Shown here: positions 42,642 to 48,535 of the stretch, piece by piece
Numbering within the stretch: the first letter of the stretch is position 1
How the letters are laid out: each line of letters starts with the position of its first letter
Assembly: GCF_055900595.2 (NCBI RefSeq)
Contig: NZ_CM148325.1
Reading direction: 5' to 3' (one strand)
Length of the DNA stretch: 64,000 nucleotides
Program-made: the position numbers and the translations under genes
Notes under the pieces: model-generated
Databases searched by the model: none
Told to the model about the DNA's origin: nothing
The model's input: the letters and a program-made list of their open reading frames with translations, nothing else

Positions 42642-44150
<1,509 letters not shown>

Positions 44151-44572
44151 CTAAAGTCTCCAAAAAATTATTATCGGCAATGTCGAAACTTGCCGTTATA
44201 TCTGCCACCGGAACGGGGTAACAGAGTTTATGTTTTCCCAGGGCGACCGTATCCTGCCGGAAGCGCTGGTTATTCACAATCGATTTAACACACCATTTAC
44301 ATTAAATTTTAGTGCTCAGCGATACTATTTTTCATCAGGTTGCACTCCCTCACATTTTTTGCGGTTGCACCTTTCAAAAATGTTAACTGCCGCAGAGAAA
44401 AAGTCTGAGTTATTTTTTTAATCCCTGTCATATCGATTTCTTTTATTAACATTTCATTCATTTTTAAGCTTGCTACGCAGGTCACATTTAACATGGTTGC
44501 ACAAAGTTGCAACATCATGGATATTTCACGATAACGTTAAGTTGCACCTTTCAGAACAACAGGAGTAATGGC
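44151..44572. promoter_or_regulatory. put control region with five GTTGCA PutA operator motifs between divergent putP and putA
   Basis: GTTGCA at ~44338, 44364, 44496, 44507 (inverted pair GTTGCACAAAGTTGCAAC) and 44540. Confidence 0.75.
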
Positions 44573-47500
44573 ATGGGAACCACCACCATGGGGGTTAAGC
44601 TGGACGACGCGACGCGTGAACGCATTAAGTCTGCCGCGACACGTATCGATCGCACACCGCACTGGTTAATTAAGCAGGCGATTTTTTCTTATCTTGAACA
44701 ACTGGAAAACAGCGATACTCTGCCGGAGCTACCTGCGCTGCTTTCTGGCGCGGCCAATGAGAGCGATGAAGTACCGAATCCGGCAGAGGAACCACACCAG
44801 CCATTCCTCGACTTTGCCGAGCAAATTTTGCCACAGTCGGTTTCCCGTGCGGCTATCACCGCCGCCTATCGCCGCCCGGAAACCGAAGCGGTTTCTATGC
44901 TGCTGGAACAAGCTCGCCTGCCGCAGCCGGTTGCTGAACAGGCGCATAAACTGGCGTATCAACTGGCCGATAAACTGCGTAATCAAAAAAATGCCAGTGG
45001 TCGCGCAGGCATGGTTCAGGGGTTACTGCAGGAGTTTTCGCTGTCATCGCAGGAAGGCGTGGCGCTGATGTGTCTGGCGGAAGCGCTATTGCGTATTCCC
45101 GACAAAGCCACCCGTGATGCGTTAATACGCGACAAAATCAGCAACGGTAACTGGCAGTCACATATTGGTCGTAGCCCGTCGCTGTTTGTTAATGCCGCCA
45201 CCTGGGGGCTTCTCTTTACCGGCAAACTGGTTTCTACCCATAACGAAGCCAGCCTCTCCCGTTCGCTGAATCGCATTATCGGTAAGAGTGGCGAACCGCT
45301 GATCCGCAAAGGTGTGGATATGGCGATGCGTCTGATGGGCGAGCAGTTCGTCACTGGTGAAACCATCGCGGAAGCGTTAGCCAATGCCCGCAAGCTGGAA
45401 GAGAAAGGTTTCCGTTACTCCTACGATATGCTGGGCGAAGCCGCACTGACCGCAGCGGACGCGCAGGCATATATGGTTTCCTATCAGCAGGCGATTCACG
45501 CCATTGGTAAAGCATCTAATGGTCGTGGCATCTATGAAGGTCCGGGCATTTCAATCAAGCTGTCGGCGCTGCATCCGCGTTACAGCCGCGCCCAGTATGA
45601 CCGGGTAATGGAAGAGCTTTACCCACGTCTGAAATCATTAACCTTGCTGGCGCGTCAGTACGATATTGGTATTAACATTGATGCCGAAGAGGCCGATCGT
45701 CTGGAGATCTCCCTCGATCTGCTGGAAAAACTCTGTTTCGAGCCTGAACTGGCAGGCTGGAACGGCATCGGTTTTGTTATTCAGGCTTATCAAAAACGCT
45801 GCCCGTTGGTGATTGATTACCTGATTGATCTCGCCACCCGCAGCCGTCGTCGTCTGATGATTCGCCTGGTGAAAGGCGCGTACTGGGATAGTGAAATCAA
45901 ACGTGCGCAAATGGACGGCCTTGAAGGTTATCCGGTTTATACCCGCAAGGTGTATACCGATGTTTCTTATCTCGCTTGTGCGAAAAAGCTGCTGGCGGTG
46001 CCGAATTTAATCTACCCGCAGTTTGCAACGCACAACGCCCACACGCTGGCGGCGATTTATCAACTGGCAGGTCAAAACTACTATCCGGGCCAGTACGAGT
46101 TCCAGTGCCTGCATGGTATGGGCGAGCCACTGTATGAGCAGGTCACTGGGAAAGTTGCCGACGGCAAACTTAACCGTCCGTGTCGTATTTATGCTCCGGT
46201 TGGCACACATGAAACGCTGTTGGCGTATCTGGTGCGTCGCCTGCTGGAAAACGGTGCTAACACCTCGTTTGTTAACCGCATTGCCGACACCTCTCTGCCG
46301 CTGGATGAACTGGTTGCCGATCCAGTCACTGCTGTAGAAAAATTGGCGCAACAGGAAGGGCAAACTGGATTACCGCATCCGAAAATTCCCCTGCCGCGCG
46401 ATCTTTACGGTCACGGGCGCGACAACTCGGCAGGGCTGGATCTCGCCAATGAACACCGACTGGCCTCGCTCTCCTCAGCCCTGCTCAAAAGTGCACTGCA
46501 AAAATGGCAGGCCATGCCAATGCTGGAACAACCGGTCGCGGCTGGTGAAATGTCACCCGTTATCAACCCGGCGGAACCGAAAGATATTGTGGGCTATGTG
46601 CGTGAAGCCACACCGCGTGAAGTAGAACAGGCGCTGGAAAGTGCAGTTAATAACGCGCCAATCTGGTTTGCCACGCCTCCGGCCGAACGCGCGGCGATTT
46701 TGCATCGCGCTGCCGTACTGATGGAAAGCCAGATGCAGCAACTGATTGGTATTCTGGTACGTGAGGCCGGAAAAACCTTCAGTAACGCCATTGCCGAAGT
46801 GCGTGAAGCCGTCGATTTTCTCCACTACTACGCGGGACAGGTGCGGGATGATTTCGCTAACGAAACCCACCGTCCATTAGGGCCTGTGGTGTGTATCAGC
46901 CCGTGGAATTTCCCGCTGGCGATTTTCACCGGGCAAATCGCTGCCGCACTGGCGGCAGGTAACAGCGTACTGGCAAAACCGGCAGAACAAACGCCGCTGA
47001 TTGCCGCACAAGGGATTGCCATTTTGCTGGAAGCGGGTGTACCGCCAGGCGTGGTGCAGTTGTTGCCCGGTCAGGGTGAAACCGTAGGCGCGCAACTGAC
47101 GGGTGATGATCGCGTGCGCGGGGTGATGTTTACCGGTTCAACCGAAGTCGCTACGTTACTGCAACGCAATATCGCCAGCCGCCTGGACGCTCAGGGCCGC
47201 CCCATTCCACTCATTGCGGAAACCGGCGGCATGAACGCGATGATTGTCGATTCCTCCGCCCTGACCGAACAGGTCGTCGTGGATGTACTGGCCTCGGCCT
47301 TCGACAGTGCAGGTCAGCGTTGTTCGGCACTGCGCGTGCTGTGCCTGCAAGATGAGATTGCCGACCACACGTTGAAAATGCTGCGCGGCGCAATGGCCGA
47401 ATGCCGGATGGGTAATCCGGGTCGCCTGACCACCGATATCGGTCCGGTGATTGATGGCGAAGCGAAGACCAATATTGAGCGCCATATTCAGACTATGCGT

Positions 47501-48535
47501 AGTAAAGGCCGTCCGGTGTTCCAGGCGGTGCGGGAAAACAGTGAAGATGCCCGCGAATGGCAAAGTGGCACCTTTGTCGCCCCGACGCTGATCGAACTGG
47601 ATGATTTTGCCGAATTGCAAAAAGAGGTCTTTGGTCCGGTGCTGCATGTGGTGCGTTACAACCGTAACCAGTTGCCGGAACTGATCGAACAGATTAACGC
47701 TTCCGGTTATGGTCTGACGCTTGGCGTCCATACGCGCATTGATGAAACCATCGCCCAGGTCACTGGCTCGGCGCATGTCGGTAATCTGTACGTTAACCGT
47801 AATATGGTGGGCGCAGTGGTTGGGGTGCAACCGTTCGGCGGCGAAGGGTTGTCCGGCACCGGGCCGAAAGCAGGCGGTCCGCTCTATCTCTACCGTCTGC
47901 TGGCGAATCGCCCGGAAAGTGCGCTGGCGGTGACGCTCGCGCGTCAGGATGCGGAGTATCCGGTCGATGCGCAGTTGAAAGCCGCATTGACTCAGCCGCT
48001 AAATGCACTGCGGGAATGGGCGGCAAACCGTCCAGAATTGCAGGCGTTATGTACGCAATATGGCGAGTTGGCGCAGGCAGGAACACAACGATTGTTGCCA
48101 GGGCCGACGGGTGAACGCAACACCTGGACGCTGCTGCCGCGTGAGCGCGTGTTGTGTATTGCGGATGATGAACAGGATGCGCTGACTCAGCTCGCCGCCG
48201 TGCTGGCGGTGGGTAGCCAAGTGCTGTGGCCGGATGATGCGCTGCATCGTCAGTTAGTGAAGGCATTGCCATCGGCAGTCAGCGAACGTATTCAACTGGC
48301 GAAAGCGGAAAATATAACCGCTCAACCCTTTGATGCGGTGATCTTCCACGGTGATTCGGATCAGCTTCGCGCATTGTGTGAAGCCGTTGCCGCGCGGGAT
48401 GGTGCAATTGTTTCAGTGCAGGGTTTTGCCCGTGGCGAAAGCAATATCCTGCTGGAACGGTTGTATATCGAGCGTTCGCTGAGCGTGAATACCGCTGCCG
48501 CTGGCGGTAACGCCAGTTTAATGACGATCGGTTAA
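44573..48535 (+). CDS. putA: Bifunctional proline dehydrogenase / P5C dehydrogenase and transcriptional repressor PutA
   Basis: 1320-aa product MGTTTMGVKLDDATRERIKSAATRIDRTPHWLIKQAIFSYLEQ (RHH DNA-binding N-terminus) from internal ATG of ORF 44507..48535; recognised as PutA. Confidence 0.95.
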   Translation: MGTTTMGVKLDDATRERIKSAATRIDRTPHWLIKQAIFSYLEQLENSDTLPELPALLSGAANESDEVPNPAEEPHQPFLDFAEQILPQSVSRAAITAAYRRPETEAVSMLLEQARLPQPVAEQAHKLAYQLADKLRNQKNASGRAGMVQGLLQEFSLSSQEGVALMCLAEALLRIPDKATRDALIRDKISNGNWQSHIGRSPSLFVNAATWGLLFTGKLVSTHNEASLSRSLNRIIGKSGEPLIRKGVDMAMRLMGEQFVTGETIAEALANARKLEEKGFRYSYDMLGEAALTAADAQAYMVSYQQAIHAIGKASNGRGIYEGPGISIKLSALHPRYSRAQYDRVMEELYPRLKSLTLLARQYDIGINIDAEEADRLEISLDLLEKLCFEPELAGWNGIGFVIQAYQKRCPLVIDYLIDLATRSRRRLMIRLVKGAYWDSEIKRAQMDGLEGYPVYTRKVYTDVSYLACAKKLLAVPNLIYPQFATHNAHTLAAIYQLAGQNYYPGQYEFQCLHGMGEPLYEQVTGKVADGKLNRPCRIYAPVGTHETLLAYLVRRLLENGANTSFVNRIADTSLPLDELVADPVTAVEKLAQQEGQTGLPHPKIPLPRDLYGHGRDNSAGLDLANEHRLASLSSALLKSALQKWQAMPMLEQPVAAGEMSPVINPAEPKDIVGYVREATPREVEQALESAVNNAPIWFATPPAERAAILHRAAVLMESQMQQLIGILVREAGKTFSNAIAEVREAVDFLHYYAGQVRDDFANETHRPLGPVVCISPWNFPLAIFTGQIAAALAAGNSVLAKPAEQTPLIAAQGIAILLEAGVPPGVVQLLPGQGETVGAQLTGDDRVRGVMFTGSTEVATLLQRNIASRLDAQGRPIPLIAETGGMNAMIVDSSALTEQVVVDVLASAFDSAGQRCSALRVLCLQDEIADHTLKMLRGAMAECRMGNPGRLTTDIGPVIDGEAKTNIERHIQTMRSKGRPVFQAVRENSEDAREWQSGTFVAPTLIELDDFAELQKEVFGPVLHVVRYNRNQLPELIEQINASGYGLTLGVHTRIDETIAQVTGSAHVGNLYVNRNMVGAVVGVQPFGGEGLSGTGPKAGGPLYLYRLLANRPESALAVTLARQDAEYPVDAQLKAALTQPLNALREWAANRPELQALCTQYGELAQAGTQRLLPGPTGERNTWTLLPRERVLCIADDEQDALTQLAAVLAVGSQVLWPDDALHRQLVKALPSAVSERIQLAKAENITAQPFDAVIFHGDSDQLRALCEAVAARDGAIVSVQGFARGESNILLERLYIERSLSVNTAAAGGNASLMTIG

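Follow-up and report, generated by a model that had tools for sequence, protein, structure and literature searches.

GTTGCA operator sites of the Escherichia coli put control region and a covarying hairpin in the putP leader

The divergent genes putP and putA share a short intergenic region, and this locus raises the question of whether that DNA holds the operators through which PutA controls both genes, and whether it holds any further layer of control. In the window (the whole 64-kb stretch of DNA analysed here), the region lies between the following features:

42642–44150, − strand: putP, sodium/proline symporter, 502 aa, NCBIfam NF011948 equivalog
44151–44572, no strand: put control region, divergent putP–putA intergenic DNA, 422 bp
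44573–48535, + strand: putA, trifunctional repressor / proline dehydrogenase / P5C dehydrogenase, 1320 aa, NF008772 equivalog
44573–44728, + strand: RHH DNA-binding domain of PutA, residues 1–52, assigned by identity to PDB chains

The original prediction placed a put control region here, and its limits are those of the exact gap from the putP start codon (44150, − strand) to the putA ATG (44573). The gap has a GC content of 38.9%, against 49.3% for the whole window. The putP product matches NF011948 at 1137.7 bits (cut-off 955) over residues 1–501, and the gene also carries that name in an identical E. coli record. The putA product matches NCBIfam NF008772 at 2658 bits (cut-off 1750) over residues 1–1320. 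Its first 52 residues are 100% identical to the crystallised RHH domain in PDB entries 2GPE and 2RBF, whose chains are labelled ‘Bifunctional protein putA’, and the putA adjacent to the gap is thus of type C (trifunctional) with an N-terminal RHH domain.

The window is from E. coli. The 422-bp gap matches NZ_CP043414 at every position, and the region is found at 95–100% identity in 5420 of the 5426 complete E. coli genomes; seven of the hits to the intergenic DNA come from plasmid-typed records. When the gap is set against the control region of K-12 MG1655, where the put operators have been characterised (NC_000913 1078883–1079304; window coordinate = 1123455 − K-12 coordinate), 417 of 422 bases are the same. 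The five substitutions, at 44237, 44323, 44348, 44480 and 44553, leave all five GTTGCA cores intact, with one lying 4 bp 3′ of the site-1 core and another 7 bp 3′ of the site-5 core, and are expected to make no functional difference.

A local cluster of GTTGCA hexamers

The five copies of GTTGCA that had been predicted in the gap are all present, on the + strand, and are numbered 1–5 in what is reportedly the order of Zhou et al. 2008:

44339–44344, + strand: operator 1, GTTGCA, in the context GGTTGCACT (44338–44346)
44364–44369, + strand: operator 2, GTTGCA, in the context GCGGTTGCACCTTTCAAA
44496–44501, + strand: operator 3, GTTGCA, first unit of a tandem pair
44506–44513, + strand: operator 4, GTTGCA embedded in the palindrome GTTGCAAC (8 bp), one 10-bp step from operator 3
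44541–44546, + strand: operator 5, GTTGCA, 32 bp upstream of the putA ATG

Since 44506–44513 is a palindrome, it also contributes a sixth copy of GTTGCA on the − strand (44508–44513), overlapping the + strand copy at 44506. Sites 3 and 4 together make up the 18-mer GTTGCACAAAGTTGCAAC (44496–44513), 60 bp before the putA ATG, which had been singled out as a close inverted pair just upstream of putA. That description is valid, because the second GTTGCA sits in the palindrome and the 18-mer can be read as GTTGCA-N6-TGCAAC; the + strand copies at 44496 and 44506 are equally direct repeats with a 10-bp period, and both descriptions are right.

The excess over chance also bears out the original prediction. 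Counting both strands, the 422 bp hold 6 copies against 0.33 expected from the rate in the rest of the window (Poisson P = 1.2e-6); on the + strand alone, 5 are found against 0.12 expected (P = 1.8e-7). No other 422-bp window in the stretch holds more than 4, and among 20,000 first-order Markov simulations with the region’s own composition, none reached 6 and three reached 5. Ranked by enrichment, GTTGCA comes first among the region’s hexamers (Bonferroni-corrected P = 0.003), with TGTTAA and AAATGT among the most enriched after it. Over the whole 64 kb, by comparison, 55 copies are observed against 55.9 expected. The hexamer alone therefore carries little information, and the signal lies in its local clustering.

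Conservation of the sites and known put operators

We scanned one genome per species from Escherichia to Yersinia and Rahnella, which gave 80 loci, 77 of them (all Enterobacterales, from about 30 genera) with enough upstream DNA for assessment. In all 77, putP lies divergently upstream of putA. Their intergenic regions contain 395 copies of GTTGCA in 33,992 bp, against 315 in 637,736 bp of flanking DNA, a 23.5-fold difference in density (11.6 versus 0.49 per kb).

Sites 1–4 keep their sequence and spacing across genera. In an alignment of 19 genera, GGTTGCACT at site 1 and GGTTGCACAAAGTTGCAAC, which spans sites 3 and 4, are invariant, and GGTTGCACC at site 2 is kept in 18 of the 19, the exception being Shimwellia with GTTGTA; the DNA between these three blocks diverges freely. 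Sites 1 and 2 stand 25 bp apart in 55 of the 77 loci, and the tandem GTTGCA-N4-GTTGCAAC of sites 3 and 4, with its 10-bp step, recurs in 75. The distance from site 2 to site 3 is 130–136 bp in most loci. Shimwellia pseudoproteus (L074) has three tandem GTTGCA in place of two, 10 bp apart, in AAGTTGCACAAAGTTGCACAAAGTTGCAAC, approximately 67–87 bp upstream of putA.

Site 5 behaves differently and is kept within E. coli only. Its surrounding 30-mer is present in 5373 of the 5426 complete E. coli genomes, and GTTGCACCTTTCA, the site with its flank, is in E. coli an exact 13-bp copy of the operator-2 core and flank. An exact GTTGCA at this position occurs in none of the non-E. coli loci sampled, including that of E. 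albertii, which has CGCTATACC there. In roughly a dozen loci an additional copy, in one orientation or the other, is found instead approximately 100 bp upstream of putA; these loci include E. albertii, Salmonella, Kluyvera, Pseudocitrobacter, Mangrovibacter and some Pantoea. These extra GTTGCA or TGCAAC sites fall at about −100 to −105 from putA (L003, L022 and others; about 44468–44476 of the window), where E. coli has the one-mismatch CTTGCTAC. As site 5 is not conserved outside E. coli, conservation speaks for sites 1–4 only. The ‘fifth operator’ is evolutionarily labile, being fixed in E. coli and absent in the other genera sampled, some of which have the extra upstream site.

Five GTTGCA operators have reportedly been mapped in the E. 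coli put control region by gel shift (Zhou et al. 2008, J Mol Biol 381:174), of which three are said to be needed for repression of putA and two for that of putP. The same work is said to have crystallised PutA52 on operator 2, with contacts to the hexamer and three flanking base pairs, and we take the operator-2 context of the window (GCGGTTGCACCTTTCAAA; TTTGCGGTTGCACCTTTCAAA) to match the 21-bp operator-2 duplex in that crystal (PDB 2RBF). The K-12 put control DNA with its operators 1–5 (Zhou et al. 2008; PDB 2RBF) shares species, genes, 422-bp region and RHH domain with the window. A search of full-text literature, to which the text of Zhou et al. 2008 did not belong, returned nothing joining PutA with GTTGCA.

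Other published work supplies the biochemistry. The divergent putA and putP genes are both repressed by PutA, whose operators lie in the DNA separating them (PMC5879082; PMC5293562). In the trifunctional proteins an N-terminal RHH domain is responsible for DNA binding and the operators are occupied at low proline, whereas reduction of the flavin by proline raises the affinity of PutA for the membrane and takes it off the DNA (PMC5293562; PMC5879082). A Kd of about 45 nM has been published for E. coli PutA on 420-bp put control DNA, and PMC11213340 credits the repression of putP by PutA to Zhou 2008.

Salmonella enterica (L022), whose put control region is the subject of work by Hahn et al. 1988 and by Ostrovsky de Spicer and Maloy, has the same divergent putP–putA arrangement, and its sites 1–4 are the same in sequence and spacing as here. 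Its PutA makes the same switch from repressor to membrane protein (PMC5293562). Salmonella differs at site 5, where it lacks GTTGCA and has instead the inverted TGCAAC about 105 bp upstream of putA.

A more distant relative is the RHH domain of Pseudomonas putida PutA (2JXG, 2JXH and 2JXI), from a distant genus and homologous over 45 residues (E = 2.3e-20), which reportedly also recognises GTTGCA. The RHH repressors Arc, MetJ, CopG and Mnt use short operator units repeated approximately one helical turn apart, and read the major groove with a beta-sheet. Sites 3 and 4, 10 bp apart, resemble such tandem units. Unlike in those repressors, the RHH domain of PutA is fused to a 1320-residue enzyme and its sites are spread over approximately 200 bp and serve two promoters; release of PutA is a relocation to the membrane and not the loss of a co-repressor.

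Promoters, repression and competing accounts

The intergenic region contains several further elements, two of which can be placed as features:

44471–44486, + strand: putative CRP-like site TGCTACGCAGGTCACA, two mismatches to TGTGA-N6-TCACA
44309–44335, − strand: ymdG, small translated upstream ORF, 8 aa in K-12 RefSeq (K-12 b4737, 1079120–1079146)

Two candidate promoters may serve putA. Candidate A combines TTAACA (44488–44493) and CAACAT (44510–44515) across 16 bp, and candidate B combines TTGCAC (44497–44502) and GATATT (44520–44525) across 17 bp. Either would put sites 3 and 4 inside the promoter, and site 5 would then lie either at the transcript start (about +10 to +20) or immediately after the −10 hexamer. 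In the putP direction, a promoter may be formed by TTAACA (44386 to 44381) together with an A-rich element resembling a −10 box (44361 to 44356); site 2 would then fall in the spacer, and site 1 just past the start. Since a promoter consensus scan of the region gave no support above chance, returning one weak − strand match, these placements are ones that we infer from the sequence.

The CRP-like site coincides with a conserved block, TGC[AT]A-N6-TCACA, just upstream of operator 3; because matches to the consensus occur at chance level across the window, it is this conservation that speaks for it. The IHF consensus WATCAANNNNTTR has no exact match in the region. TTAACA (TGTTAA) occurs four times, at 44286–44291, 44381–44386 (− strand), 44446–44451 and 44488–44493, each copy conserved across genera, and these repeats may be −35-like promoter elements or sites for a further factor. 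The ymdG reading frame runs in the same direction as putP and starts 4 bp from operator 1; its product was first reported as a SPA-tagged 40-aa protein (PMC6001520). Most E. coli records also carry a 69-aa ‘hypothetical protein’ annotated by PGAP at 44309–44518 (− strand), across operators 1–4.

We consider the five GTTGCA hexamers to be almost certainly operator sites of the put regulon. What comes from this analysis is that the sites are present, enriched, conserved in sequence and spacing, and placed beside a PutA whose RHH domain matches the crystallised one exactly; for PutA binding, repression and the redox switch we rely on the literature. Together, the putP and putA family models, the RHH identity, the identity with K-12, the conservation and the literature support the autoregulation by the PutA RHH domain that had been proposed, and the view that this is expected biology is right, as the sites match the known PutA operator set.

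In such a scheme, the RHH domains of a PutA dimer would act as one DNA-binding module, whose beta-sheet would read GTTGCA and its flanks in the major groove. At low proline, PutA would occupy its operators: sites 3, 4 and 5 would cover the putA core promoter and the DNA immediately after it, and sites 1 and 2, about 190–215 bp upstream of the putP start codon, would cover a putP-direction promoter, such that occupancy would block transcription both ways. When proline is available, the FAD of PutA would be reduced and the protein would move to the membrane and act as an enzyme, emptying the operators and allowing expression of putA and putP.

The same hexamers could have been conserved mainly as promoter elements, or as sites of a different regulator (CRP, for example), and not through PutA binding. 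TTGCAA and TTGCAC are close to the −35 consensus TTGACA, the TTGCAC of candidate B stands 17 bp upstream of a GATATT that is conserved as part of GGATATT, and the CRP-like site abuts site 3. A −35 role, however, cannot account for several features: five copies, one of them 32 bp from the start codon; the invariant flanking G and C (GGTTGCAC); and the fixed 10-bp and 25-bp spacings. The literature, moreover, assigns these sites to PutA, and we regard the promoter or CRP account as very unlikely. It is not really an alternative either, because repression operates through just such an overlap between operator and promoter.

It is more improbable still that the conserved stretches are coding sequence of the 69-aa PGAP protein or of YmdG. 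The annotation of the 69-aa frame, the detection of its C-terminal 40 aa as SPA-tagged YmdG, and similar peptides found by tblastn in many genera all favour a coding origin. As a conserved gene, however, the 69-aa ORF was rejected, its frame being broken by stop codons elsewhere, E. albertii, Salmonella, Citrobacter, Klebsiella and Enterobacter included. Peptide conservation is confined to MLQLCAT and GAT..V.ECNL, which are in-frame translations of the operators, with unconserved sequence between them, and the 8-aa ymdG of K-12 RefSeq covers no operator. Least credible of all is a chance pile-up of a common hexamer in AT-rich intergenic DNA. The window-wide count, exactly at chance, would suit it, but the local P of about 1e-6 survives correction over all hexamers, and chance is already refuted by the recurrence of these sites at matching positions across the 77 loci, drawn from about 30 genera. 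The reading as PutA operators is the one that we retain.

A hairpin in the putP leader

On the putP side of the operators, three elements of the leader can be delimited:

44201–44225, − strand: hairpin 1, 9-bp stem in E. coli, 7-nt loop N-CGUUCC (44216 to 44210)
44203–44223, − strand: conserved 7-bp core of hairpin 1
44175–44195, − strand: hairpin 2, CGGCAAG...UUGCCG, between hairpin 1 and the putP Shine–Dalgarno, from the minimum-free-energy fold

In E. coli, hairpin 1 reads CUCUGUUACC-CCGUUCC-GGUGGCAGA (44225 to 44201), about 50–75 nt upstream of the putP ATG, and lies within the minimum-free-energy fold of the leader. The motif GGAACG with species-variable arms is found within 160 nt of putP in 70 of the 77 loci. 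The seven without it are Serratia L061 and L063, Erwinia L065, L071 and L076, Shimwellia L074 and Rahnella L080. Across 60 distinct sequences, the CGUUCC of the loop is invariant and the next GG is at least 90% conserved.

The stem covaries. Over its nine pairs, 80.4% of the alignment cells can pair, against 63.1% in shuffles, and 128 cells have changes on both sides, against 44 in shuffles; none of the 500 shuffles was as high on either measure. Controls in which the partner was slid by 1–3 columns give only 30–48% pairing. RNAalifold independently predicts the 7-pair core, with compensatory changes in all seven pairs. Within the core, 89.8% of cells pair on the putP-sense strand, 59 of them as wobbles, against 77.6% and 8 wobbles on the opposite strand, and all seven pairs are standard in 34 of the 60 sequences in the putP sense versus 9 on the other strand. 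This strand bias of pairing and wobbles therefore points to an RNA in the putP transcript. A 45-aa ORF over the hairpin (44140–44277, − strand), in which the loop would encode Pro-Val-Pro, was rejected as the source of the conservation: none of the frames stays open across species, and a coding constraint therefore does not explain the invariant loop.

An Rfam cmscan of 44050–44650 at E ≤ 10 gave five matches, all at E of about 6–9 and far below the gathering score, with none over 44201–44225; among them, PutA_thermometer (E = 7.1) is at chance level. No description of hairpin 1 was found in the literature.

Hairpin 2 is conserved in structure and not in sequence. Of 70 loci, 55 have a comparable predicted hairpin built on other stem sequences; it is missing where the intergenic gap is shorter. 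Term-seq places an RNA 3′ end at K-12 1079260 (Adams et al. 2021), which is position 44195 of the window, 6 nt beyond hairpin 1 and still 45 nt upstream of putP. In that dataset the end scores 1.08 for Rho (‘No’) and 1.14 as an intrinsic terminator (<3), and is flagged as downstream of the ymdG uORF (Adams et al. 2021).

A further strongly conserved block, GGCGACCGTATCCTGCCGGAAGC, occupies 44242–44264 and reads GCUUCCGGCAGGAUACGGUCGCC in the putP sense. It presents a GGA in a possible short stem-loop, CCGNCAGGAUACGG, similar to a CsrA site, and repeats the UUCCGG of the hairpin-1 loop.

Beyond the known operators, the put region may have, though we hold this with less than even confidence, a second, post-transcriptional layer of control, in which a trans-acting factor would read the loop and closing pairs of the putP-leader hairpin (CGUUCCGG). 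The sRNA GcvB, which acts on amino-acid transport, is a concrete candidate for this factor, though as a lead and not a result: its nucleotides 11–18 complement the hairpin motif, and a microarray hint concerns putP in Salmonella. In K-12 GcvB these nucleotides (L084 207–214) are CCGGAACG, the exact complement of CGUUCCGG at 44208–44215 of the window; a given 8-mer would turn up in a 206-nt RNA with a probability of about 0.003. The stretch falls in an internal-loop region of stem-loop 1 in the Rfam GcvB consensus. Miyakoshi et al. state that microarrays suggested regulation of putP by GcvB in Salmonella, and the dependence that has been reported was on region R1. A duplexfold of full-length GcvB with the leader pairs everything and does not beat shuffled sequences, 7.7% of which do as well.

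The operator set is already characterised, hence already known, and the operators add nothing new: PutA is the textbook case of an enzyme that doubles as its own repressor, and the window repeats the arrangement of the E. coli reference. To our knowledge, only two points go beyond described work, the restriction of site 5 to one lineage and the putP-leader hairpin. The lability of site 5 bears on its weight in the repression of putA. The hairpin, covarying and beside a mapped RNA 3′ end, would, if it does act in this second layer, make post-transcriptional control of proline uptake directly testable.
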